Part shown: positions 9,915 through 21,579 of the stretch, piece by piece
Layout of the letters: each line of letters starts with the position of its first letter
How positions within the stretch are numbered: position 1 is the stretch's first letter
From: Patescibacteria group bacterium
GTDB taxonomy: Bacteria; Patescibacteriota; Patescibacteriia; 2-01-FULL-39-33
DNA: 32,000 nt
Direction of reading: 5' to 3'
NCBI GenBank assembly: GCA_041649575.1
Contig: JBAZMW010000002.1
Coordinates: forward strand, 1-32,000
Made by a program: the position numbers and the translations under genes
The notes under the pieces: generated by a model
Seen by the model: the letters and a program-made list of their open reading frames with translations, nothing else
What the model was told of the DNA's origin: nothing
Database searches by the model: none

Positions 9915-11648
9915 TTGTCGAAATATCAATTCATGACGATTAATTTGAACAAAAAAGGATGGTCTTTATTTCTCTTGGCTGTAATTGTGGTTACGGCTGT
10001 CTTTTTTCGTTTTTGGCACTTGACCGGCAATGACCTGTATTCGGACGATGCTCTTTATTCTTTCCGCGCCCTGGGCTGGTTTGACTATCTGGGCGGTGGA
10101 CAGACCACTCCGGTCCAATGGTTTGGTTCTGTCCCTGGTTGGGCCAGATTGTCTTTTCATGATGCGCCGCCGCTGGTTCTGGCCATCCAAAACATTTTTT
10201 TTAAATTTCTAGGGCCGAATGTTTTGGCGGCACGTCTGCCGTTTGCTCTGGCTGGTCTGGGCGCAGTGCTGCTTTTGTATTTTTTGGTAAAAAAGAGCAA
10301 AAATCGAGGCCCGGCTTTGTTAGCCGCTTTTTTACTGGGCATTTCTTCTTTGGCGACTTGGGCGAGTCGGGTCGGTTATCTGGAGGGAGTGGAAGTGTTT
10401 TTTATTGTTTTGAGCGTTTTTTTTCTGGCCAATTTTTTGGCTGGCGGCAAAAAATACAATTTGTATTGGTGGGGTATTACCATCGGTTTGTCGTTGCTTT
10501 GCAAATATACGGCCATTTTTCTGCTACCGGCGGCGATTTTATACCTTTTGATTTGGCGCCGGTCGGCTTTCAAAACCAAAGAGTTATGGTTGGCTCTGGT
10601 TTTATTTCTGGCCGTGCTGACTCCCATTATTATTTATAATGTCAATGTTTTTCAAACACGCGGTCATTTTGACGCTGCCTTGTCGTCGATGGTCGGCCTG
10701 CACCCGGAAGACTTTAAGACCGTTGCCAGCCGTGGTTTGAGCTTGAATTGGTGGCAAAATCTTCTTTCTCTGCCAAAAGACGCCCTTTTCACCACCACCT
10801 CTTTCCCTATTTTTTTACTGCTAATTATTTCCTTTGTTTATCTGTTGGTCAAGGTGGTCAGAAAGAAAGGCGATTATTTAGAAAATTTCATTTTTATCAA
10901 TCTGGTCATGGTTCTGGCGATGTTTGCTTTTGTCGGTGCCGGGCCAAGATTTTTTTCTATTGTCATGCCGTTTTTATCGCTGGTGTTAGCTTTATTCATC
11001 AGCGACATCTGGCGCTGGCTAAGGCAAAAAGAATTTTTGGTGGTGCAAAAGATAATGATTCTGATTTTATTATTAGCGTTTGTCGGGGAAATTGTTTACA
11101 ATATTAACACCAATCTCTCGGTCAAGTCGGCTGGCTGGCCGAATATTTCTTATTCCAGCGCCCGTTTTTATAATCTGGGTTTCAATCAGTTAGATGCTTA
11201 TCTGCAAAATGATGTTTTAACCCCGCTGCCGGCGCCGCTGAGACTTACTGCTTTAAATGATATCTTTCTAAATCCAGAAGATATCAAGGGCGCGCGTTTA
11301 GTTTTGACCGACGAGAGAATCAATTGGTTTGCCTATTCCTGGTATCTGCAAAAATATTCCTTTTTTTATCATTTACCGGTAGTTTCTTTTTATGATGTTT
11401 TAAACCTAACTGTTCCCAATAAGCTCGACCCGATGGAATTTCTAAAAAATTCTGGTGCCAAGGATATTTATTATATTTTGGCCTTGGATGACTCGGTGCT
11501 TGATCCCGTCAAAAAAGAAAATTCCAACCTAGGATACGCCATGAAATTGTTGGGAGACAAACTGCAAGAGCGGGGCGCTGATGTCAAAGAGATAAAAAAT
11601 CATAATAATTTAGCGGTTTTTAAAATTTATCATCTTAAAAATAATTAA
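9915..11648 (+). CDS. GT-C glycosyltransferase, family 39/83 (ArnT/PMT_2-like)
   Basis: The polytopic N-terminal half carries DDALYSFRALGWFDY...FHDAPPLVLA, an Asp-containing first loop plus a PPL motif typical of ArnT/PMT_2. The C-terminal half is soluble. The start is either TTG 9915 or ATG 9933. Confidence 0.75.
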   Translation: MSKYQFMTINLNKKGWSLFLLAVIVVTAVFFRFWHLTGNDLYSDDALYSFRALGWFDYLGGGQTTPVQWFGSVPGWARLSFHDAPPLVLAIQNIFFKFLGPNVLAARLPFALAGLGAVLLLYFLVKKSKNRGPALLAAFLLGISSLATWASRVGYLEGVEVFFIVLSVFFLANFLAGGKKYNLYWWGITIGLSLLCKYTAIFLLPAAILYLLIWRRSAFKTKELWLALVLFLAVLTPIIIYNVNVFQTRGHFDAALSSMVGLHPEDFKTVASRGLSLNWWQNLLSLPKDALFTTTSFPIFLLLIISFVYLLVKVVRKKGDYLENFIFINLVMVLAMFAFVGAGPRFFSIVMPFLSLVLALFISDIWRWLRQKEFLVVQKIMILILLLAFVGEIVYNINTNLSVKSAGWPNISYSSARFYNLGFNQLDAYLQNDVLTPLPAPLRLTALNDIFLNPEDIKGARLVLTDERINWFAYSWYLQKYSFFYHLPVVSFYDVLNLTVPNKLDPMEFLKNSGAKDIYYILALDDSVLDPVKKENSNLGYAMKLLGDKLQERGADVKEIKNHNNLAVFKIYHLKNN

Positions 11649-11663
11649 TCTAACCTTTAAGAT

Positions 11664-13988
11664 ATGAACCAATCTAAAATTTTGGTATTGATTCCCAAGG
11701 TCATTATCTGGCTGTGTCTGGCCGTTATTTTATTCTCGCCCCTTTATGTCAGCAGCCATCTTTTTTTTCCTTTTATCGTCACCAAAACCCTGGTTTTTAA
11801 TATTGCGGTAGAGGTAATGGTTTTGGCTTTTTTGTTTCTGGCCAGCATAAGTGGCGACTATAAAATCAGGATTAATTTGGCGGTTATCTTGGTCGCGGTT
11901 TATATTATCTTGTCTTTCATTTCTTCTTTGGCGGGCGATAATTTTTACCGCAGTTTCTGGAGCAATAACGAAAGAAGCGAAGGATTGCTCCTCTTACTAC
12001 ATCTCTTTTTGTTTTTGGTGGTGCTTTCCAGCTTCTTTAGAAAAATAAAGAGTTGGCTTTTGGTTTTTGACACTTTTTTCTTCGCCAGTTTTCTGGTCGC
12101 TTTGATTGCCCTGGGTCAGTATTTCAAGCTTGATTGGCTTTTTGCTTCCGGTGACGGCCAGCGCCTGGCCGGCACTATTGGTAATGCCGGCTATATGGCC
12201 GGCTACTTGGTTTTTGCCGTTTTTCTGGGCTTATTATTGGTTTTTAAGCGGAAAACCATTTATTTGAAAATTTATTATCTGATAGTAATGGCTTTGGAGG
12301 TCTTTATTATTTTCGGTACTGGTACAAGGGGTGGTATGCTGGCGCTGTTGCTTGGAGCTTTTTTGTTTGTCTTGTATTTACTTTTCTTTTATTTCAAAAA
12401 TAAATATTTAAAATTGGCCGGAGTGGTGGTTATACTTTTGGCTTTGGGGCTGCCCTTGGTAGTGTTTGCCAATAAAGATTCACATTGGGTGAAAAGTAAT
12501 TTTGCCCTGAACAGACTTTCCACTATTTCCGCCACCACGGTCACCGCTCAATACCGGTTTATGACTTGGCAAGCGGCTTGGCAGGGCTTTAAGAAAAAAT
12601 CCGTCCTTGGTTGGGGTCAGGAAAATTTTTATCAACCGTTTGACAAATACTTCAATCCTAAAATATTTCGTCATGGTGGTTCGGTGGTTTGGTATGATCG
12701 CGCTCACAATATAGTTTTTGACCGCTTGGTTACCGGCGGCATCCTGGGCCTGCTGTCTTATTTGGCGCTTTTGTTCGTTCCTTGTTATTTTTTGTGGCGC
12801 CAGCGGGCGAAAAAGGAACCAGAGGCGGGCAATGACCAAGAAAAAAAAGGCAAGAGATATTTCATCCAGGTGATCTTTTCTTTAATTGTTCTGGCTTATT
12901 TTATTCAGAATTTGTTTATTTTTGAGGCTTTGGCTACTTATATTCCTTTATTTCTGGTATTGAGCTTCATTGGCTTGTTTGGTTGGAGCTACGATTGGCA
13001 GCCGCTAGCCAGCCGCCGTGTCAAGTTAGCGTTTTTTATTTTTTGGCTGATTGTTTTTTTACCGATTCTATATTTTGTCAACCTCAAGCCGCTCAATGCC
13101 AACTTGACCCTGACCAAAGCTTTAAGCAGCCAGGATTTGAGTGTTAGCGAGAGAATTGATCTTTTCAAACAAGTTTTGTCGCAGCAGACCCCGGGTAATC
13201 AGGAATATCGACGGCAGCTGTTCAATCTTTTGGAGGCGTTGATTACCCAAAAGTTCCCGGATAAAAAAGTTATTTCCGACCTGGCCGATTTTACCGGCAG
13301 CGAATTAAACAAACAGATCGCCGAAAACCCCCACAGTGTTTCCAATTATTTGCTACTGATGAGATTCAACAGTTCCATGTTCAGTCAGACCGGCAATCTC
13401 GATTATCTTAATAAAAACTTGGATCTTTTTGATCAGGCCAAGGAGCTGTCGCCGGCCCGTCAGGTTATATATTTTGAAATCGGCTATTCCTACATAGCCA
13501 TGGGTAATTATTTTAAACAAACTAGCCAGGGGGAGATGGCCCAGAAATATTATGATTTGGCCGTAGATAACTTTCGTTACGCCCTGGAGTTAAACGATAC
13601 TAATTTCGAATCATACAGGCAGTTAATAAGCGCCTTAATTTATGCCGGTAAAAACCAAGACGTGCTAGATTTTATCGACCAAATGAATCAGAAGGAAAAA
13701 GAAAAAATAATGGATGATTACGATCACACCAGTTTTTTTACCAGCGTCATTAACATCGGCGTTTCAGTAAAAAATTACCAAATTGCAAGATCGATGGCCC
13801 AAAAACTGATTGAGATAGACCCCAAAAATCCTTTGTATTATGTCCAACTGGCTTTAGCTGAAGCCTATTTAGGCAATAACAATGAGGCTATAACAGTAGC
13901 TCAAAAAGTGGCGGAATTCGGAGACGATTACAAAAAACAGTCTGAAGATTTCATCCAAAAGGTAAAAGCGGGCGATTTTTCCAAGTAG
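11664..13988 (+). CDS. O-antigen ligase/polymerase-family (Wzy_C) membrane protein with a C-terminal TPR-like helical domain
   Basis: About 12 TM segments are present. GTIGNAGYMAGYLVF and GTRGGMLALLLGAFLF match the Wzy_C family pattern. The C-terminal ~300 aa are helical-repeat-like (GEMAQKYYDLAVDNFRYALELNDTNFESY, ARSMAQKLIEIDPKNPLYYVQLALAEAYLGN). Confidence 0.7.
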   Translation: MNQSKILVLIPKVIIWLCLAVILFSPLYVSSHLFFPFIVTKTLVFNIAVEVMVLAFLFLASISGDYKIRINLAVILVAVYIILSFISSLAGDNFYRSFWSNNERSEGLLLLLHLFLFLVVLSSFFRKIKSWLLVFDTFFFASFLVALIALGQYFKLDWLFASGDGQRLAGTIGNAGYMAGYLVFAVFLGLLLVFKRKTIYLKIYYLIVMALEVFIIFGTGTRGGMLALLLGAFLFVLYLLFFYFKNKYLKLAGVVVILLALGLPLVVFANKDSHWVKSNFALNRLSTISATTVTAQYRFMTWQAAWQGFKKKSVLGWGQENFYQPFDKYFNPKIFRHGGSVVWYDRAHNIVFDRLVTGGILGLLSYLALLFVPCYFLWRQRAKKEPEAGNDQEKKGKRYFIQVIFSLIVLAYFIQNLFIFEALATYIPLFLVLSFIGLFGWSYDWQPLASRRVKLAFFIFWLIVFLPILYFVNLKPLNANLTLTKALSSQDLSVSERIDLFKQVLSQQTPGNQEYRRQLFNLLEALITQKFPDKKVISDLADFTGSELNKQIAENPHSVSNYLLLMRFNSSMFSQTGNLDYLNKNLDLFDQAKELSPARQVIYFEIGYSYIAMGNYFKQTSQGEMAQKYYDLAVDNFRYALELNDTNFESYRQLISALIYAGKNQDVLDFIDQMNQKEKEKIMDDYDHTSFFTSVINIGVSVKNYQIARSMAQKLIEIDPKNPLYYVQLALAEAYLGNNNEAITVAQKVAEFGDDYKKQSEDFIQKVKAGDFSK

Positions 13989-14046
13989 TGGTTTAAAAAG
14001 TTATCCACAGCTTTCCGTTGACAGTAATGAAAATTTGTTTTTTTTG

Positions 14047-14055
14047 TGTTATAAT
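14047..14055 (+). promoter_or_regulatory. Extended -10 element TGtTATAAT upstream of 14154
   Basis: TG at 14047-14048 and TATAAT at 14050-14055. A TTGACA at 14018-14023 is 26 nt away, too far for a standard -35. Confidence 0.35.
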
Positions 14056-14153
14056 TAAAGCATCATAAAGTATAAGCAAAAACTCAAGTAGCCGTTCTTC
14101 AAAGAGAGTTCCATTTAATTTAATCAAATTAAATAACTTTTAAAAAATAACTC

Positions 14154-14795
14154 ATGTTGTTTATGCACAAAAAAATCAATCTCTCCTCATCTTTGAGGAA
14201 TGCTTTGATTGTTGTGGTGGCGTTGTTTTTTGTGGCCACGGCGGTTTACGCTACTACCATAATCGGGACTAACATAAGCACTGGCGGGACTTTAACGGTA
14301 AGCGGAGATTCCACTTTAACTTCGGCTACCACCAGCCATACTTTGTATGTCACAAGTTACGCCTCTTCCACCGGCGGCCTTTTCACTCAAGGTAATTTAC
14401 ACGCTGGCGGCACCGCTTCTTTTGACGGTAACTCCACTTTTGGCAAGTCGTCATCAATTGTCAATCTGTTCACCGGTACTCTACAGGCATCCACCACGGC
14501 TTTATTTACCGGGGCGAGTACTTTTTATAACACTATAAACCTCAAAAATACCTCTGGCGGCACTTTTGATTTGACCACCAGCACCGCCACCACCACCAAA
14601 GGTATCTTTTCTCGCGATCATACCAACTCAACTTCAACCGTTAGTATTGGTGATGTTGGCTCTGCGGCTACCAAAGGTTGCTTAGAAATAACTGGTACCG
14701 ACGGAGTATTTTATAGTTGTTTTATTGATAACACTCACGGCACTGCCACCACCAGCGGCTACTACCTGTTGTGTCATCTGGGCCGGTGTATATAA
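14154..14795 (+). CDS. Secreted or membrane-anchored Thr/Gly/Ser-rich repeat protein (beta-helix-like periodicity), function unknown
   Basis: N-terminal hydrophobic anchor ALIVVVALFFVATAVYA. Short repeats of the type G-x-L-x-V-S-G-x-S-T-L follow (GGTLTVSGDSTLTS, GGTASFDGNSTFG, TGTLQASTTALFTGASTF). The C-terminus carries 4 Cys (GCLEI..YSCFI..LLCHLGRCI). The start is ATG 14154 or ATG 14166. Confidence 0.6.
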   Translation: MLFMHKKINLSSSLRNALIVVVALFFVATAVYATTIIGTNISTGGTLTVSGDSTLTSATTSHTLYVTSYASSTGGLFTQGNLHAGGTASFDGNSTFGKSSSIVNLFTGTLQASTTALFTGASTFYNTINLKNTSGGTFDLTTSTATTTKGIFSRDHTNSTSTVSIGDVGSAATKGCLEITGTDGVFYSCFIDNTHGTATTSGYYLLCHLGRCI

Positions 14796-14829
14796 AAGCA
14801 GATTTAATTTAAATTTTTAAGCTTATGCT

Positions 14830-16101
14830 ATGAAAATAAAAGCTAAAAAATTATTTTTTAGAGTTTTAATCTTTAGCGCTTGTTTGCTTTTTACTAGCAC
14901 GGTTGTGTTGGCCGCCACCGATGATTTTACGGCTGATGGCGACATCTCGGTCAGTGGAGTAACTTTTGGTGACACCACGGCTGATATGATCATACTTAGC
15001 GGCTCAAAATCAGAAAGCTGGGAGTTTAACAGCGGTACCTTTACGGTTGCCAATCCCGACTCAGCCTTTAAGATTGGTTCGTCAGACAGTGCCGTCAAGG
15101 GACTTAAGGCGGTAAGAGGCACCAATGAATACTGCGAAAACAACACCACGCCTGGCACTAGCTACTTGACGCTCCCAACCACTGCCGGTACTTATACCAT
15201 CACCCCTTTGTCGGGTACTTGCGTTGGCGGTTCACCGTCATCAGTGCCTGCTCCTAGCGCCGGTTCGGGTTCTGGCGGTACAGGGGAAACCACTTTGGGC
15301 GGCACGTCGAATCTTGGCAATGTCAGCAGTAGCGGCAAAAATGTTTTTATGTATATTAATTCCACTGCCAATTTTACTACCACGGTCAGCGGTTCTGGTT
15401 CTAATAGTCACAGCGTGAAAGTCACCGGGCTCGACTTGACCAATAAGCAGATCACCCTGACGTTTCAATCCGACCCGGTTACAGTGGAATTAAATCTAAA
15501 AGAGACCAAAGAAGTTGATTTAAACGGCGATGGTCTTAGTGATGTTAAGGTGACCTTTAATGATTTAATCATCAATAAGGCGGACTTAACGATCACCAAT
15601 ATTTTATCTACGTCAAAGGCATTTGCGCTGGGCTTGGTGGCCGGTGATTTAATCAAAATTGCCACCAATAGCGCCGTTTATTATATAGATTCTAATGGCA
15701 AACGACATTTATTTGTCAACGCGGCTACTTTTTGGACTTGGTATAGCGGTTCCTGGTCAAAAATAAAATATGGCACGGAAGCCAAAACCATCAAGATTAT
15801 TTCTCAAGCTGATTTCGATCAGGTGCTACTGGGCGCCAATATTACAGCCAAGCCGGCAAATAAGTTAATTAAATTCAGAACCAGCAAGAGAGTTTATGTG
15901 GTTGATGAGGGCGCGATTTTGAGACAAGTGGTGTCGAGTTCCGGCGATGCCAGCGTGGCCAAAAAATTGTATGGCGCTGATTATGCCAAAAACGTGATCC
16001 TTGTTCCCGACGGTTTTGAAAGTGACTATACCCACGGGGAAGTGCTGACCGAAACTTCAACAGCCCCAATCAAAACACTGGAGATAAACAAGTTGTTTTA
16101 A
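14830..16101 (+). CDS. Secreted protein carrying the C-terminal SAVYY-type module shared with the giant surface protein
   Basis: Signal peptide MKIKAKKLFFRVLIFSACLLFTSTVVLA|A. A Gly/Ser linker is present (SAGSGSGGTGE). C-terminal aa ~272-410 align with aa ~49-175 of ORF 3294..7169: GD.IK....SAVYY.D...K.HLF....TF..WY ... LIKF....VY.V. Confidence 0.75.
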   Translation: MKIKAKKLFFRVLIFSACLLFTSTVVLAATDDFTADGDISVSGVTFGDTTADMIILSGSKSESWEFNSGTFTVANPDSAFKIGSSDSAVKGLKAVRGTNEYCENNTTPGTSYLTLPTTAGTYTITPLSGTCVGGSPSSVPAPSAGSGSGGTGETTLGGTSNLGNVSSSGKNVFMYINSTANFTTTVSGSGSNSHSVKVTGLDLTNKQITLTFQSDPVTVELNLKETKEVDLNGDGLSDVKVTFNDLIINKADLTITNILSTSKAFALGLVAGDLIKIATNSAVYYIDSNGKRHLFVNAATFWTWYSGSWSKIKYGTEAKTIKIISQADFDQVLLGANITAKPANKLIKFRTSKRVYVVDEGAILRQVVSSSGDASVAKKLYGADYAKNVILVPDGFESDYTHGEVLTETSTAPIKTLEINKLF

Positions 16102-16120
16102 CGAACTGAAATTATTTAAA

Positions 16121-16149
16121 AATCCTCCCGCTTAAGCGGGAGGATTTTT
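16121..16149. terminator. Bidirectional rho-independent terminator between convergent genes
   Basis: AATCCTCCCGC (16121-16131), loop TTAA, then GCGGGAGGATT (16136-16146). An A-run lies upstream and a T-run downstream, so it can serve both 14830..16101 (+) and 16164..17312 (-). Confidence 0.85.
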
Positions 16150-16163
16150 GTTAATCAGGTTTT

Positions 16164-17312
16164 TTATTTTTTGTATTCGCTTAGAGTTTCCAGAATCATT
16201 TTTTGAAAAGAAAAATCATTTATTACAGCAAGCCTTGCTTGTTCGGCCATTTTTTTTGCCAAAGCGGGGTCAGCGATTACTTGTTTGATTTTTTCTGCTA
16301 ACTTAGCGGAATTACCAGGCTCCGAGAGCAGGCCGGTCTTACCATCTTTTATTATCTCCGGGATACCTCCTATTCTGGTGGCGACAATAGGCAGCCCAGC
16401 GGCCATTGCTTCTAGAATGGAGTAAGGCAACCCTTCCTTTAAAGAAGAGCAAAGGTAAAGATCAAAGGCTTTTAGGTATTGGGCGGCATCACTCTGGCTG
16501 CCAGCTAAAATGAATTTATTTTCCAGCCCGGCTTCTTTGATTAAATTTTCCAATTCCGGCCTTAGTTCGCCATCGCCAATCACCACGGCCACGACAGGTA
16601 TTGGATCGGTGTTTATTATCTTTATCGCTTCAATGAAGTATTTTAAGCCTTTGTTGGCATAAAAATTGGCTATGGTGCCGACTATGATTCCTGTCAGGGG
16701 GAGGCCCAATTTTTTTCTAGCCTCTGGCTGGTCTAAAAATTTTATTTTGTCCAGGTTAATCCCATTAGGGATAACCGCTAATTTGTTTTGGGGAGCAATA
16801 TTTTTTTTCAAAGCGGATTGTTTGTCTAATTGGGAAAGGCAAATGATTTTGTCTTTGAACCGGCTGGTGCTTTTTTCTAAGACGAGGTAGGCTAGTTTTA
16901 TCAGAGGATTTAGCGATTCGTTGAATACCCAGCCATGGCAAGTGAAAATAACCCTGGCTTTATGTTTAGCCAGTTTAGCGGCCAGCGAACCAACCACACC
17001 GGCTTTACTGCTGTTTAGATGTATTATATCTGGCTTTTCTTTCTCTATTGTCTTTTTTATTTCCCAAACAGCCAGCAAATCTTTTAGAGGATTAATCTCT
17101 CGGACCAGATTTTTGAAAGTTATTGATTTCAGCCCTTGGTTTTTTGCCCTTTCCGCCAGTTCGCCCTTGTTTTTAGCGCCGCCGCTAATTATTATTTCTA
17201 GGTTGGGCTCATCTTTTAGCCCGCTTATCAGATCATAAACATACTTTTGCGCACCGCCCCAAGAGAGTAAAGTGATTATATATAAAACCTTCGTTTTTTC
17301 AGAGTTGTTCAT
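16164..17312 (-). CDS. Glycosyltransferase family 4 (GT-B fold)
   Basis: The N-terminus WGGAQKYVYDL matches the GT4 donor/acceptor domain. The C-terminus shows the E-x7-E region SLKEGLPYSILEAMAAGLPIVATRIGGIPEII. Confidence 0.85.
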   Translation of the reverse strand: MNNSEKTKVLYIITLLSWGGAQKYVYDLISGLKDEPNLEIIISGGAKNKGELAERAKNQGLKSITFKNLVREINPLKDLLAVWEIKKTIEKEKPDIIHLNSSKAGVVGSLAAKLAKHKARVIFTCHGWVFNESLNPLIKLAYLVLEKSTSRFKDKIICLSQLDKQSALKKNIAPQNKLAVIPNGINLDKIKFLDQPEARKKLGLPLTGIIVGTIANFYANKGLKYFIEAIKIINTDPIPVVAVVIGDGELRPELENLIKEAGLENKFILAGSQSDAAQYLKAFDLYLCSSLKEGLPYSILEAMAAGLPIVATRIGGIPEIIKDGKTGLLSEPGNSAKLAEKIKQVIADPALAKKMAEQARLAVINDFSFQKMILETLSEYKK

Positions 17313-17342
17313 AAATTGACTTTTTAGCTAAAATATATAATA

Positions 17343-17371
17343 ATATTAAGGTATATTCATTTATTAATCAA
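17343..17371 (-). promoter_or_regulatory. Candidate sigma70-like promoter for the minus-strand GT4 (TTGATT-17-TAATAT)
   Basis: The minus strand reads TTGATT (plus 17366-17371), a 17-nt spacer, then TAATAT (plus 17343-17348). The background is AT-rich, so a chance match is plausible. Confidence 0.3.
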
Positions 17372-17384
17372 GAGTGATTAAATT

Positions 17385-18239
17385 ATGGAAAATAAAAAAA
17401 TTGGTTTTATCGGCCAGGGCTGGATTGGCAAAAATTACGCCGATGATTTGGAAGCAAGAGGCTATGAGGTAGTCAGATATTCTCTGGAGGAGCCTTTTGT
17501 AAACAACAAGGAAAAAATAAAAGATTGTAATATTGTTTTTATCGCCGTACCCACACCAACGACCTCAGCCGGCTTCGACGATGCTATCGTCAGAAGCGCT
17601 GTCAAATTGGTCGGTAGCGGCCAGTCGGCGGTTATCAAGTCTACTATTTTACCAGGTACCACCCAATCGATTCAGGCAGAGAATCCCGGCATCTTCGTTT
17701 TTCATTCGCCGGAATTCCTCTCGGTCTCCACGGCCTATGAAGATTCACATCATCCACAGAGAAACATTGTCGGCATACCGGTGGATAACGAAGAATATCG
17801 TAACCGCGCTCGAGAAATTTTGTCAGTTCTGCCCACCGCCGATTTTTCCTTAATTACTGATGCCAGGGAGGCGGAGCTTTTTAAATATCTACGTAATTGT
17901 TTTTTTTATACCAAAGTCATCTATATGAATTTGCTGTACGATCTGGCGAAAAACCTCGGCTGTCGTTGGGAGACGCTTAGAGAAATTATGGCCAATGATC
18001 CCTGGATTGGCAGCATGCACATAGACCCGGTACATAAATCTGGCCGTGGCGCCGGCGGCGAATGTTTCATTAAAGATTTTGCCGCTTTCAGGAAATTTTA
18101 TCAGGCAAAGGTCTCCGATAGCGTGGCCGATGAAATTTTCAAGAGTCTGGAAGACAAAAACCGTGAACTACTTATAAAAAGCAATAAGGATTTGAATTTG
18201 CTAAAAGGGGTCTACGGCGAAGAGACAACAAAAAAATAA
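17385..18239 (+). CDS. UDP-glucose/GDP-mannose dehydrogenase-family protein lacking the C-terminal UDP-binding domain
   Basis: Motif-for-motif correspondence with Ugd-type enzymes, recalled from memory. The shared motifs are: GFIGQGWIGKN (Rossmann), IVFIAVPTPT, VIKSTILPGTT, HSPEFLSVSTAYEDSHHPQRNIVG, TDAREAELFKYLRNCFFYTKVIYMNLLYDLA, and RGAGGECFIKD (catalytic Cys loop). At 284 aa the protein ends where the third domain should begin. Confidence 0.8.
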   Translation: MENKKIGFIGQGWIGKNYADDLEARGYEVVRYSLEEPFVNNKEKIKDCNIVFIAVPTPTTSAGFDDAIVRSAVKLVGSGQSAVIKSTILPGTTQSIQAENPGIFVFHSPEFLSVSTAYEDSHHPQRNIVGIPVDNEEYRNRAREILSVLPTADFSLITDAREAELFKYLRNCFFYTKVIYMNLLYDLAKNLGCRWETLREIMANDPWIGSMHIDPVHKSGRGAGGECFIKDFAAFRKFYQAKVSDSVADEIFKSLEDKNRELLIKSNKDLNLLKGVYGEETTKK

Positions 18240-18260
18240 ATTTTTTTATAAAAATAATAA

Positions 18261-18295
18261 CGCGTCGTCCCCGCTTGAGTCAGGGGGACGACGCG
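18261..18295 (-). terminator. GC-rich hairpin terminator of the minus-strand cassette gene
   Basis: CGCGTCGTCCCC (18261-18272) pairs with GGGGACGACGCG (18284-18295). On the minus strand it is followed by TTATTATTTTTATAAAAAAA. On the plus strand no T-run follows. Confidence 0.75.
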
Positions 18296-18314
18296 GTCTG
18301 TACTTGGTGCGTGT

Positions 18315-18827
18315 CTAGACGTACTGCAGCAGATCGAAGAACGGTCTCTGGTGTTCCATAAACGGCTTCGGAAGCTGGTCGACCCTAAACCATTTTCCCT
18401 CTGTTCTTCTTAGAGCTTCTTCCTCCGCCGTCGTATCGACTACCACGTAGAAGACACAGTGCATTTCGCCACCGTAGATGTGCTTCGAATAGACAACGCC
18501 GAGTAATTCCGCATCTTCCGCCAGGTCCGGACACCCGATTCCTCTAGCTATCCGCCACAGGGTGTCTTTCACTAAATTATCCGATAGCTGCGCTATCTCG
18601 CCGGCGACATGCCATCGGGAAGCAAAGCGAAGGGCGTCTGACGGGTTCTGCACCAGAAAGACCTCCCTGACTTTTTGCCGCTGCCTTATCACCAGCAACT
18701 CTACGGCTGGCAGGCGCAGGAGCCGCGCTAAAGCGCGCAGCAGTTCCGGAGACAGAGTGCCCCAAACCCTCGCTAGCAGCCTTAAAACTACATCCTCTTT
18801 TTCTGAGCTCAATCCTTCCGTGGCCAT
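18315..18827 (-). CDS. Hypothetical 170-aa protein, possible Nudix-fold with a degenerate Nudix box, in a GC-rich cassette
   Basis: The ORF track extends to 18986. However, ATG 18827 is preceded by GGAGG 9 nt upstream, and a consensus promoter lies inside the longer ORF. The pattern VELLVIRQR..EVFLVQNP...RWHVAGEIAQLSDNLVKDTLWRIARGIG...LLGVVYS...HCVFYVVV...GKWFRVDQLP resembles a Nudix fold. The box Glu/Arg positions read S, L, W, A, R. Confidence 0.6.
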   Translation of the reverse strand: MATEGLSSEKEDVVLRLLARVWGTLSPELLRALARLLRLPAVELLVIRQRQKVREVFLVQNPSDALRFASRWHVAGEIAQLSDNLVKDTLWRIARGIGCPDLAEDAELLGVVYSKHIYGGEMHCVFYVVVDTTAEEEALRRTEGKWFRVDQLPKPFMEHQRPFFDLLQYV

Positions 18828-18900
18828 CTGTAAACGCCTCCTTTTCCACTTTCTTATGTACAGGACTAAGACCTGCCACATCAGTAGCAGATTATTTATT

Positions 18901-18929
18901 ATAATATGACTTTCCGACGTTCCTGTCAA
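18901..18929 (-). promoter_or_regulatory. Consensus sigma70 promoter of the cassette gene (TTGACA-17-TATTAT on the minus strand)
   Basis: The minus strand reads TTGACA (plus 18924-18929), an exact 17-nt spacer, then TATTAT (plus 18901-18906). Confidence 0.6.
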
Positions 18930-18940
18930 TGACCAGGAAC
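18919..18940. promoter_or_regulatory. Perfect 7-bp-arm inverted repeat overlapping the cassette -35 (GTTCCTG-N8-CAGGAAC)
   Basis: GTTCCTG at 18919-18925 and CAGGAAC at 18934-18940. The 8-nt spacer contains most of the -35 hexamer. Confidence 0.45.
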
Positions 18941-18942
18941 TT

Positions 18943-18971
18943 TTGACTTTTTTGCTGAAATATACGATAAT
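18943..18971 (+). promoter_or_regulatory. Sigma70-like promoter for the long plus-strand glycan operon (TTGACT-17-GATAAT)
   Basis: TTGACT at 18943-18948, a 17-nt spacer, then GATAAT at 18966-18971. It lies about 57 nt upstream of ATG 19028 and back-to-back with the cassette promoter. Confidence 0.45.
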
Positions 18972-19027
18972 AATAGGGATAATCATTGGTTTAGGTAGAT
19001 AAAGAATGCCAAGGTAATTTTTTTAAT

Positions 19028-20170
19028 ATGAGCAAAATTCTCATTTTTTCCCTGGCCTATCATCCTTTTGTCGGCGGGGCTGAAGTGGCTATCAAGGAAA
19101 TCACCGAGCGGCTGGCTGGCGAGTTTGAATTTGAAATGATCACTGCCAATTTGGACGGTCGGCAAAAAGAATTTGAAGAGAATTTTAACGGCCTTAGCAA
19201 GATTTATCGTCTTGGCAAAAGAAAATCAGATAAATATTTTTTTCCTTGGTTGGCCTGCCGCAAAGCCGTTGAGCTGCACCGGCAGAGTAATTATCAGATG
19301 ATTTGGGCGATGATGGCCAACCAGGCCGGCTGGGCCGCTCTGAAATTCAAGAAGAAATTCCCACAAGTTCCATATTTGCTCACTTTGCAGGAAGGGGATA
19401 GCGAATGGGATATCTGGCGGCGGACATTTTTGATTCGGCCTATTTACAAAGCGATCTACAAAAAAGCTGATTATATTCAGGCTATTAGTAATTTTCTAGC
19501 CCAGCGGGCGAAGAATTTGGGAGCTAAGTGTCCGATAGAAGTGGTGCCGAATGGAATAAGTAACGTCATTGCGAGCGAAGCGAAGCAATCCCATATTTTT
19601 AAAAATAAAGATTTAAAGAGAGTTATAACAGTTTCCAGGTTGGTTAAAAAAAATGGCCTGGAGGATTTAGTAAAAGCCATGGAATTAGTTAATAAAGATT
19701 ATGACAAGCCAGTCGTTCTAAAAATAATTGGCGATGGAGAATTAAAATACAAATTAGAAAAAGCAGTTAATTATTCAAAAATAAAAGACAAAATTGCATT
19801 CTTGGGAAAAATAAATAATGAAAAAGTTTATGAATATTTGGCTCAAGCCGATATTTTTGTTCGGCCGTCATTGTCTGAAGGGTTGGGTAACGCTTTTTTA
19901 GAGGCTATGGCTTGTGGCGTGCCGGTCATTGCCACTCCGGTTGGCGGTATTCCCGATTTTTTGAAAGACGGCGAAACTGGCTGGTTTTGCGAGGTAAGAA
20001 ACCCCAAAAGCATTGCCGAAAAAATAAAGTATATTTTTGATGAGGAAAATAAGGAAGAAGTTGACAGGGTGGTCAAAAGTGCCAAAAAGATGGTAGAAGA
20101 AAATTATAATTGGGAAAAAATCAGTTTGGACCTGAAAAAAATTTTTAACCATTTAATAAACCAAGAATGA
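19028..20170 (+). CDS. Glycosyltransferase family 4 (GT-B fold)
   Basis: The N-terminus is SLAYHPFVGGAEVAIKEI. The C-terminus is PSLSEGLGNAFLEAMACGVPVIATPVGGIPDFLKDGETG (E-x7-E region). Confidence 0.85.
   Translation: MSKILIFSLAYHPFVGGAEVAIKEITERLAGEFEFEMITANLDGRQKEFEENFNGLSKIYRLGKRKSDKYFFPWLACRKAVELHRQSNYQMIWAMMANQAGWAALKFKKKFPQVPYLLTLQEGDSEWDIWRRTFLIRPIYKAIYKKADYIQAISNFLAQRAKNLGAKCPIEVVPNGISNVIASEAKQSHIFKNKDLKRVITVSRLVKKNGLEDLVKAMELVNKDYDKPVVLKIIGDGELKYKLEKAVNYSKIKDKIAFLGKINNEKVYEYLAQADIFVRPSLSEGLGNAFLEAMACGVPVIATPVGGIPDFLKDGETGWFCEVRNPKSIAEKIKYIFDEENKEEVDRVVKSAKKMVEENYNWEKISLDLKKIFNHLINQE
19565..19592. repeat. Short palindromic/tandem element GTCATTGCGAGCGAAGCGAAGCAATCCC embedded in-frame (encodes VIASEAKQS)
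   Basis: ATTGC (19568-19572) and GCAAT (19585-19589) are inverted arms around a tandem CGAAG-CGAAG. The element lies in the inter-domain linker of the GT4. I recognise the SEAKQS-type peptide as a recurrent metagenomic repeat-derived sequence, from memory and unverified. Confidence 0.4.
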
Positions 20171-21579
20171 GAAAAGAAGTTTTGCTAATTTGTCCTCATT
20201 CCGCGCTGGAAATTTTTAAGGAATCGAAAATTAGCATCGTTATTCCCCATATCCCGTATGTATCACTGGCCAGTTTGGCTGGCGCTCTCTTGGCTGGCGG
20301 GCACGGCGTTCATATCTTGGATTTAAGTATTTCTAAAAACCCCCTGGTTGATTTGGAACAAAAACTAAAAGTTTATCAGCCGGATTTTGTGGGCGTCACT
20401 TTTACCACCGGTTTGTGCAGCGAGGCGGCCGCTATCGCCAAGAAAGTCAGGGAGCTTTGCGGCCTGGCAAAGTTGATTGCCGGCGGCGCGCACCCGTCGG
20501 TTTTTCCGGCCGAGCCGATTGAAAAATACGGTTTTGATTTTTCGGTTTTTGGCGAAGGCGAGCTTACTTTGTCGGAATTGGTTTCCGGCCGCGATGTTTC
20601 TGCCATAGACGGTCTGGCTTATCGCGGGGCCGACGGCCAGGTTGTCATTAATTCTCCCCGCGCTCTCATTGGCGATTTGGACGATCTGCCCCCTCCGGCC
20701 TATCAGCTTTACAACGCCAAAAATTATCACAGCCCGAAAGTCGCTTCACGCCGGAGCCCGGTGGCCGCCATTGAGACCAGCCGTGGCTGTCCCTACAGCT
20801 GTATTTATTGCAACAAACACATTTTTCAGACAAAATTTCGTGCCAAGTCGCCCCGACGAGTGGTTGACGAGATGGAAATCCTCTTAAACCTTGGCTACAA
20901 GGAAATTCACGTTTGGGACGATTGCTTTTCCGCTGATTTAAATCACGCTAAAGGCGTTTGCGACGAGATTGTCAGGCGCGGCGTCAAAGTCAACTGGAAT
21001 GTCTATAATGGCATCAGGGTTGACCGCGTGGATGAGGAGTTGCTTTGCAAACTTATGGCCGCGGGCTGCTACCGTCTAAGTTTTGGCATTGAATCGGGCG
21101 ACCAGGCGGTTTTGAACTTGTCTCAGAAGGGAATCACTTTAGAACAAATCAAAAACGCTGTTCGTTTGGCCAACCAAGTCGGCATAGAAACCCTTGGATT
21201 TTTTATGGTCGGTTTGCCCGGCGAAACAAAGGAGACCTTTGAAAAGACCGTTGCCTTGGCCAAAGAATTAGATTTGGATTTGCCCAAAATCGCCATTGCC
21301 ACGCCACTGCCTGGTACTAAATTTTTCGATGATTGGCGGGAAAAGGGTTTGATTAAGTCCTATAATTGGCCCGATTACGTATTGCATACCAAAAAAAGAG
21401 TAGCCAGTCATCCCAATATCGGCGATGAAGAAATGTTTAAATATTATAATTTATTTTACCGGCAGCTGTATTTACGCCCGAGTTTTATTGCGAAAAGATT
21501 TTGGCGAGGACTAAGAACCGGAGAGATATTTTTTGATATCTATTATTTTTTGAAGGTTTTTATTGGCTTTAAATGGTAA
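20167..21579 (+). CDS. B12-binding-domain radical SAM enzyme (class B rSAM)
   Basis: The N-terminal Rossmann-like B12 domain shows LLICP...ASLAGALLAGGHGVHILD...VGVTFTT...IAGGAHPS. The rSAM cluster motif is SRGCPYSCIYCN (CxxxCxxC). Its start overlaps the upstream GT4 stop by 4 bp (ATGA). Confidence 0.85.
   Translation: MRKEVLLICPHSALEIFKESKISIVIPHIPYVSLASLAGALLAGGHGVHILDLSISKNPLVDLEQKLKVYQPDFVGVTFTTGLCSEAAAIAKKVRELCGLAKLIAGGAHPSVFPAEPIEKYGFDFSVFGEGELTLSELVSGRDVSAIDGLAYRGADGQVVINSPRALIGDLDDLPPPAYQLYNAKNYHSPKVASRRSPVAAIETSRGCPYSCIYCNKHIFQTKFRAKSPRRVVDEMEILLNLGYKEIHVWDDCFSADLNHAKGVCDEIVRRGVKVNWNVYNGIRVDRVDEELLCKLMAAGCYRLSFGIESGDQAVLNLSQKGITLEQIKNAVRLANQVGIETLGFFMVGLPGETKETFEKTVALAKELDLDLPKIAIATPLPGTKFFDDWREKGLIKSYNWPDYVLHTKKRVASHPNIGDEEMFKYYNLFYRQLYLRPSFIAKRFWRGLRTGEIFFDIYYFLKVFIGFKW

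Follow-up and report, generated by a model that had tools for sequence, protein, structure and literature searches.

A minus-strand gene that interrupts a glycan locus of a Patescibacteria group bacterium (assembly GCA_041649575.1, contig JBAZMW010000002.1; genome G000 in what follows, 0.92 Mb in 5 contigs) encodes a 170-amino acid (aa) protein, P0001, for which a Nudix fold is predicted. The gene lies within the stretch of DNA analyzed here, positions 1 to 32,000 of the contig (the window). With slightly better than even confidence, we read it as an accessory Nudix-fold gene from a nucleotide-sugar family, with a catalytically impaired copy in the window that is not a recent import. According to this scheme, an accessory gene with its own expression signals would separate, in antisense orientation, two genes that most relatives have side by side, and its product would be a stand-alone Nudix-fold protein from a family that binds or hydrolyzes nucleotide-sugars. 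In the window's copy, the substitutions R61N, R80Q, E96G and R118Y would have left the fold in place and impaired catalysis; the protein may be a pseudoenzyme that binds a ligand, or its enzymatic activity may be changed or lost. An earlier interpretation made from the DNA letters and translations (the sequence-only reading) had proposed a self-contained, possibly horizontally acquired module with a repurposed Nudix-like fold.

Nudix fold and the residues lost from P0001

Searches started with P0001 alone detect no match in Pfam, NCBIfam or the PDB (the hits to DUF4351, E = 0.019, and to a P-type ATPase, 0.4, are not meaningful), and a word-indexed homolog search returns the query only. An exhaustive phmmer search of 1.84 billion representative sequences identifies 65 relatives, nearly all of 160–200 aa, the closest being P0002 and P0003 (42% identity). 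Among the 53 aligned relatives, 31 match the Pfam NUDIX family, PF00293, which P0001 itself does not, and 4 family members match the NCBIfam model PRK15434. Compared with the PDB, the family profile shows similarity to NrtR from Shewanella (3gz8/3gz5, E = 5e-9), AraR from Bacteroides (5bs6, E = 7e-9), MutT (4v14, E = 2e-6) and the GDP-mannose mannosyl hydrolase, GDPMH (1rya, E = 2e-4, covering chain residues 5–104). The AlphaFold2 model computed with the alignment of the 53 relatives has a predicted local distance difference test score (pLDDT) of 94.4 and a predicted template modeling score (pTM) of 0.87; in it, two helices at the N-terminus precede an alpha/beta sandwich of the Nudix type. 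A Foldseek search with this model yields more than 50 Nudix structures with the probability of 1.0, the effector domains of AraR and NrtR coming first, followed by the Nudix domain of MUTYH, GDPMH and MutT. Because the Pfam matches of the relatives, the profile matches to PDB entries, the AlphaFold2 model and the Foldseek results all agree, the predicted Nudix fold of P0001 can be regarded as established, in accord with the Nudix-like pattern perceived in the sequence-only reading. At the level of the fold, P0001 belongs to the Nudix homology clan, which is defined by an alpha/beta/alpha domain of about 130 aa with a loop-helix-loop where the box lies. Three canonical PF00293 genes are present elsewhere in the genome, so that the housekeeping Nudix functions are covered. 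A possible link to defense systems was also considered: the only basis for it is a PADLOC match to DrmMI (18 bits, E = 1e-4) that is shared by none of 5 relatives and was treated as spurious.

The consensus of the family in the region of the Nudix box is WHxPG[T/G]xxRxx[D/E]-x8-R-x4-E-[L/I/F]-G, that is, a box of the reduced type G-x5-[D/E]-x8-R-x4-E. Compared with the canonical box GX5EX7REUXEEXGU, which contains three metal-binding glutamates, the family keeps the arginine and the last of these glutamates, and the other two are replaced. The box of the GDP-sugar glycosyl hydrolases, typified by GDPMH, is GX5EX7RLX2AEXGU (PMC5389931). In the alignment of residues 6–76 of 1RYA with the family profile, which defines the register, R61, D83, R92 and E96 of the family correspond to R37, E57, R65 and E70 of GDPMH; judging by this alignment, the box residues that the family has kept are those kept in the GDP-sugar glycosyl hydrolases. 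Together with the profile and Foldseek matches, the box alignment bears out the kinship with the GDPMH type suggested in the sequence-only reading. Gabelli et al. are said to have identified, in 2004, E70 of GDPMH as a Mg2+ ligand and R37 and R65 as contacts of the GDP phosphates. Catalysis by GDPMH involves the base His124 and Tyr103, and cleavage at C1 of the sugar yields GDP and the sugar.

In P0001, the corresponding segment reads E77-x5-D83-x8-R92-IAR-G96-I-G98 and contains none of the box glutamates. Accordingly aligned, P0001 shows neither the canonical box with its three metal-binding glutamates nor the GDPMH-type reduced box that characterizes the family as a whole (glycine occupies position 96), and the equivalent of the phosphate-binding Arg37 is missing (asparagine at position 61). 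The sequence-only reading was right that the box is degenerate; the register that it proposed, G-x5-S-x7-L-W-R-x-A-R, is shifted relative to the alignment of the family with GDPMH.

How unusual these replacements are can be judged from 72 members placed on one profile (53 library sequences and 19 from genomes). Position 61 is R in 69 members and K in 1, position 80 is R in 60, position 96 is E in 70, and position 118 is R in 64; the N, Q, G and Y that P0001 carries at these four positions, respectively, are each unique to it. All four residues (R61, R80, E96 and R118) are kept in P0002–P0005, a set that includes the syntenic ortholog described below. P0001 itself retains H73, G76, D83, R92 (present in 70 of the 72 members), the L152–P153 motif and the hydrophobic strands. 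Across seven key columns, three departures are found only in P0001 and in one other member. One copy from genome G093 has three departures in these columns, namely F at position 96, C at 73 and S at 76.

Given that R61N and E96G align with Arg37 and with the Mg2+ ligand Glu70 of GDPMH, P0001 is most likely impaired in catalysis. The losses of charged residues are clustered and both frame and fold are preserved, which suggests that catalysis has been lost or altered, and not that the gene is decaying at random. Several points weigh against the interpretation as a whole. The loss of activity is deduced from alignment with a distant enzyme (about 18% identity). The confident fold depends on the alignment of the relatives, a single-sequence AlphaFold2 run giving a pLDDT of only 46.6. 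In the protein tree, no terminal branch of the subclade exceeds that of P0001, yet its length is moderate (0.91 versus 0.45–0.74 for its neighbors). About half of the loci with a family member are devoid of sugar genes, the other half lying beside nucleotide-sugar or glycan genes. Finally, the domains that match best are the effector domains of AraR and NrtR, not GDPMH, and because these best structural matches are parts of regulators, the substrate class of the family is uncertain.

The Nudix clan also tolerates many variants of the box, active enzymes included (PMC5389931), which both counts against impairment and lends itself to another explanation, that P0001 continues to hydrolyze a nucleotide-sugar or another nucleoside diphosphate derivative (NDP-X) in the glycan pathway and uses other residues to bind metal and phosphate. 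The intact, full-length reading frame with its strong expression signals, the retention of D83, R92, H73 and G76, and the nucleotide-sugar genes in the family context are all compatible with such an activity. We nevertheless consider it unlikely, as the copy in the window is without the single remaining box glutamate of the family, the one that aligns with E70 of GDPMH, three near-invariant arginines are gone, and P0001 taken alone matches no Nudix model of Pfam or NCBIfam.

The family and its kin among Nudix proteins

The family to which P0001 belongs is uncharacterized and scattered through Patescibacteria. It is represented in 25 of the 301 genomes sampled from the class (about 8%), and in 3 of the sampled genomes from the same taxonomic family (hereinafter same-family genomes), counting G000. 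Some genomes carry multiple copies, either three in tandem (L055 7010–9030, from G093) or four to five scattered ones (G142 and G250). The contigs that encode P0002, P0003 and P0005 are 1–3 kb long, so that the closest relatives provide no neighborhood information. In 19 loci with a family member, the recurrent neighbors are genes for NAD-dependent sugar epimerases/dehydratases (6 loci), glycosyltransferases of the GT4 (5) and GT2 (3) families and DegT-type sugar aminotransferases (5); NeuB, RfbC and GDP-mannose dehydratase are further neighbors. From the box and these neighbors, it appears most likely that the family binds, and in most members hydrolyzes, a nucleotide-sugar. In two distant genomes, the family member adjoins a second Nudix gene (L014 5951–7746 from G030 and L017 7125–8309 from G033). 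The products of these second genes, of 196 and 184 aa, match PF00293, have GDPMH as the top PDB match (5e-4) and contain a GDPMH-type R-x4-E box; the group of three genes in G030 forms a GC-rich island, 0.55–0.58 versus about 0.45.

Like GDPMH (NudD/WcaH/Gmm of E. coli; 1RYA, 2GT2 and 2I8T), the family has a Nudix fold in which the first strand is preceded by a helix at the N-terminus. The Foldseek template modeling (TM) scores are 0.65–0.67 on the target over 156–163 aligned columns, the subset of box residues is shared, and both occur in glycan loci. The differences are the low identity and the modest profile E-value (about 18% and 2e-4, as given above), the x8 rather than x7 spacing before the arginine in the family, one extra N-terminal helix in the family, and the absence of the R37 and E70 equivalents from the window's copy. 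With canonical Nudix enzymes (MutT, PF00293), the family shares the fold and, for the majority of the aligned members, the Pfam match; unlike in those enzymes, the glutamates of the REUXEE motif are down to one in the family and to none in the window's copy.

The regulators NrtR and AraR (3GZ5, 3GZ8, 5BS6 and 5DEQ) are the best matches of both the profile and Foldseek searches, and an RG motif after strand 5 is common to them and the family. In the literature (PMC2330246, PMC4666351), their Nudix domains are described as non-catalytic ligand sensors with degenerate boxes. Unlike P0001, which stops at 170 aa, these regulators are 225–240 aa long and possess a C-terminal winged-helix DNA-binding domain, and the Foldseek alignments span 140–147 columns, the Nudix part only, of chains of 214–228 residues. 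The extra helices of P0001 are N-terminal. Furthermore, NrtR controls genes of NAD metabolism and AraR those of arabinose metabolism, not glycan synthesis. No DNA-binding domain was detected in P0001: there is no match to a helix-turn-helix family in Pfam or NCBIfam, and the model ends after the last Nudix helix.

The gene, its signals and the glycan locus

The features of the locus are listed in Table 1. All elements of the minus-strand gene reported in the sequence-only reading, that is, the promoter, the GGAGG, the 170-codon frame and the 12-bp hairpin followed by a T-run, are confirmed by the sequence. The frame runs from the ATG at 18827 to the stop codon at 18315–18317.

Table 1. Features of the minus-strand Nudix-like gene and its surroundings (window coordinates)
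Feature	Position	Strand	Basis
UDP-glucose/GDP-mannose dehydrogenase-family gene, 284 aa (left flank)	17385..18239	+	PF03721, PF00984
Predicted intrinsic terminator of the Nudix-like gene	18241..18295	-	GC-rich stem, then T-rich run
Gene of the predicted Nudix-fold protein P0001, 170 aa	18315..18827	-	ORF (open reading frame), homologs, AlphaFold2 model
Shine-Dalgarno sequence AGGAGG of the Nudix-like gene	18837..18842	-	9-nt spacer to ATG 18827
Predicted promoter of the Nudix-like gene, sigma-70-type TTGACA-17-TATTAT	18901..18929	-	11/12 match
Perfect palindrome GTTCCTG-N8-CAGGAAC	18919..18940	.	Hairpin call on plus strand
Divergent promoter-like site TTGACT-17-GATAAT, upstream of the glycan operon	18943..18971	+	10/12 match
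GT4 glycosyltransferase gene, first of the downstream operon (right flank)	19028..20170	+	Family search

The promoter of the gene, located 74 nt 5' of the ATG, is the top-scoring of 16 promoter-like sites in a scan of positions 16000–21000. Genome-wide, the two strands together hold 83 sites of that quality with a 17-nt spacer, a density of about 0.045 per kb per strand, and because sites this good are so rare, a chance placement immediately upstream of the gene is unlikely. The Shine-Dalgarno (SD) sequence is unusual for this organism: GGAGG at the appropriate distance precedes only 3–7% of the long ORFs in the genome and is missing in front of all 24 other ORFs of the window, as expected from the weak or missing SD sequences that the sequence-only reading ascribed to the neighbors. 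The conserved pattern of the 16S rRNA 3' end (the anti-SD sequence) was not found in the assembly. The stem of the terminator hairpin (18261–18272 and 18284–18295) consists of 12 bp with 100% complementarity, encloses an 11-nt loop, folds with -28.7 kcal/mol, and exists in one copy in the whole genome; it went undetected in the general terminator scan, which allowed loops of up to 8 nt. A T-rich run follows the hairpin on the minus strand and none is present on the plus strand, so that the predicted terminator serves the minus-strand gene only.

The public gene model for this locus is a protein of 223 aa (P0082) that starts at the upstream ATG at 18986. The promoter of the gene falls within the N-terminal extension of this model (18828–18986), to which nothing corresponds in the homologs; their N-termini line up from residue 4 of the 170-aa form. 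Because the 170-aa form fits the homolog N-termini and the promoter lies inside the extension, the start is placed at 18827 rather than 18986; the public start is probably mis-annotated, and the protein would shrink from 223 to 170 aa. The GC-rich stretch was also considered as a non-coding RNA candidate. There are no Rfam matches at gathering thresholds anywhere in the window, ARAGORN detects no tRNAs, and the terminator hairpin gives only sub-threshold chance matches to Rfam; the protein homologs prove that the stretch is coding. The stretch holds a genuine accessory gene, predicted to be monocistronic and equipped with a promoter, a strong ribosome-binding site and a terminator of its own.

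The surrounding locus is a glycan locus. Apart from the two flanking genes, it contains a second GT4 gene, a B12-binding radical SAM gene and a PMT_2 gene. The dehydrogenase-like gene on the left encodes the N-terminal and central domains only. Its orthologs in at least 10 same-family genomes are 283–345 aa long (E = 1e-121 to 1e-159), and because this length is conserved, the short form is a stable gene and not a truncation. The GT4 gene on the right has orthologs with 59–70% identity in 17 same-family genomes. With nothing between them, the dehydrogenase-like and GT4 genes lie 0–100 bp apart in 8 same-family genomes, which agrees with the description of the Nudix-like gene as a self-contained unit interrupting the locus; the flanking genes are probably co-transcribed in most relatives. 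The slot between them looks like a recurrent insertion point. Other small genes fill it in G009 (a 299-aa ORF, L088 3816–4715) and in G020 (a 119-aa ORF, L093 4598–4957).

A member of the same family but another genus, G006, carries seven genes collinear with positions 9915–20170 of the window; the dehydrogenase-like gene is missing from this syntenic locus. The ortholog of the Nudix-like gene in G006 (P0004) occupies the same slot in the same orientation and, as in the window, has its own promoter, an SD-like AAGGA, and a hairpin with a T-run. In the protein tree, P0001 and the G006 protein belong to one subclade with the support of 100/92. In comparative terms, the picture of an intrusive gene drawn in the sequence-only reading holds, the gene being absent from the eight genomes with adjacent flanks and present in the same slot in G006. 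The position of G006 relative to G000 is less clear: in the RpoB tree, the two are not sisters, G006 grouping with G019, G008 and G001 (96/94) above a weak backbone, and the tree of the GT4 genes of the relatives is a star without resolution. In genera g7, g15, g17 and g6 (L119–L128), an insertion splits the RpoB match, the proteins being about 1140–1156 aa long versus 1093 aa in G000; the RpoB tree does not group these insertion-bearing genera.

Of the genes in the syntenic block, the Nudix-like one has diverged most, with 36% identity to its G006 ortholog compared with 45–66% for the flanking genes. This divergence raises the question of a gene in decay, i.e., one for an accessory enzyme whose function has gone under relaxed selection and whose reading frame is still open. 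The longest terminal branch in the subclade, the joint loss of four conserved residues, and the absence of the gene from most same-family genomes would fit such a course. Decay is quite unlikely, all the same: the frame is full-length, with residues 1–166 aligned to the family profile, the hydrophobic core positions and the L152–P153 motif are retained, the near-consensus promoter, perfect SD sequence and perfect 12-bp terminator stem are all in place, and the losses affect charged, functional-looking positions rather than random ones. An accessory gene with impaired or altered catalysis remains the preferred reading.

The spacer between the Nudix-like gene and the downstream glycan operon contains a perfect palindrome, which overlaps the -35 element of the Nudix-like gene and from which the -35 element of the plus-strand operon is separated by 2 bp. 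A further possibility is that P0001, by analogy with the Nudix effector domains of NrtR and AraR, senses nucleotide-sugars without catalysis and regulates the divergent glycan operon, acting at the palindrome through a partner protein or through its N-terminal helices. The effector domains of NrtR and AraR being the best profile and structural matches, the divergent orientation of the gene and the operon, the palindrome over the -35 element, and the loss of catalytic-type residues would all be in keeping with a regulator. We consider this role very unlikely, since neither a winged helix nor any other DNA-binding domain is recognizable in a protein of 170 aa, compared with 225–240 aa for NrtR and AraR; since the rest of the family keeps the catalytic-type residues, so that it is not a family of regulators; and since the G006 spacer, in which the TTGACA/GTCAAT boxes overlap as well, lacks the palindrome. 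More doubtful still is the notion that a stand-alone dead Nudix domain acting as a nucleotide-sugar sensor could represent a minimal, domain-split counterpart of the NrtR and AraR regulators.

In several relatives (L085, L086, L091, L092, L084 and L096), the dehydrogenase-like gene is followed by a 55–90-bp spacer with two or three tandem palindromes that are centered on TACGTA (e.g., GCTACGTAACATGCTACGTAGCAAGCTACGTAGCAA) and are absent from the window. These tandem palindromes could be a conserved element of the operator-like or terminator-like kind.

Composition, origin and significance

The five hand counts of GC in 60-nt samples (32, 36, 39, 23 and 16) are exact on recount, and the amino acid composition of the product differs from that of the genome in the direction described at the time: P0001 is rich in R (9.4% versus 4.6%) and L (14.7% versus 10.6%) and poor in K (3.5% versus 8.0%), I (2.9% versus 7.6%) and N (1.2% versus 4.9%). 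The compositional contrast is pronounced locally and mild in the genome at large. The GC content at third codon positions (GC3) exceeds that of the neighboring genes (median 0.48) with a local z of 3.6. Among the 784 long ORFs of the genome, both the GC content of the ORF (54.6%, z = 1.7) and its GC3 (62%, z = 1.4) are at the 91st percentile; the biggest deviation is that of the first codon positions (GC1, z = 2.3). Synonymous codon usage is at the 7th percentile and the tetranucleotide distance at the 96th, and 5% of the 513-nt windows of the genome are equally or more GC-rich. The gene is mildly atypical in composition, which is suggestive of a foreign origin and not diagnostic of one. Of 22 family members, 6 stand out locally in GC3 within the genomes that carry them (z of at least 3), which suggests that the family moves laterally among Patescibacteria of differing GC content. 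Strong outliers are L054 6996–7559 in G043 (0.81 versus 0.44), L016 7792–8505 in G035 (0.41 versus 0.19) and L060 7013–7519 in G063 (0.41 versus 0.25).

These data bear on the origin of the gene and not on its function. Horizontal acquisition from a GC-richer donor that makes use of SD sequences, either recent or as a xenologous replacement of a resident copy, would account for the local GC3, codon usage and tetranucleotide signals, for the strong SD sequence, a rarity in this genome, for the intact adjacent flanks without the gene in 8 relatives, for the failure of G000 and G006 to appear as sister lineages in the RpoB tree, for the mobility of the family that the 6 outliers among 22 members suggest, and for its patchy distribution in the class. 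This origin, toward which the sequence-only reading leaned, is weakened by the genome-wide comparison and stays a tentative possibility. GC and GC3 reach the 91st percentile only, and the deviation is greatest in GC1, pointing to amino acid composition. The G006 ortholog lies in the same slot and orientation within a supported common subclade, and its GC content is ordinary (0.43, with a GC3 of 0.39). Around the gene, only short chance repeats are found, with no flanking repeats or target-site duplication, and there are no mobility genes. The RpoB backbone, on which the separation of G000 and G006 depends, is weakly resolved. Because of the syntenic ortholog and the 100/92 subclade shared with G006, import from an unrelated GC-rich lineage is disfavored; that the gene is accessory or mobile among Patescibacteria is plausible. 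The balance tips slightly toward a locus-resident accessory gene that is common to at least one other genus and is not a recent import.

The envelopes and glycans of Patescibacteria (Candidate Phyla Radiation, CPR) are poorly understood, and regulation in their reduced genomes is almost uncharted. Against this background, the analysis defines an uncharacterized Nudix subfamily, whose members combine the reduced box of the GDPMH type with one additional helix at the N-terminus and are often encoded in nucleotide-sugar loci. What is added is a new degenerate variant inside a known Nudix clan, and its practical impact would be modest unless biochemistry reveals a function. The window's copy offers a natural experiment, in which conserved charged residues are lost in one member of the family and strong expression signals are kept. 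Should P0001 prove to be a pseudoenzyme, it would illustrate in compact form how an enzyme becomes a binding protein within a glycan locus.

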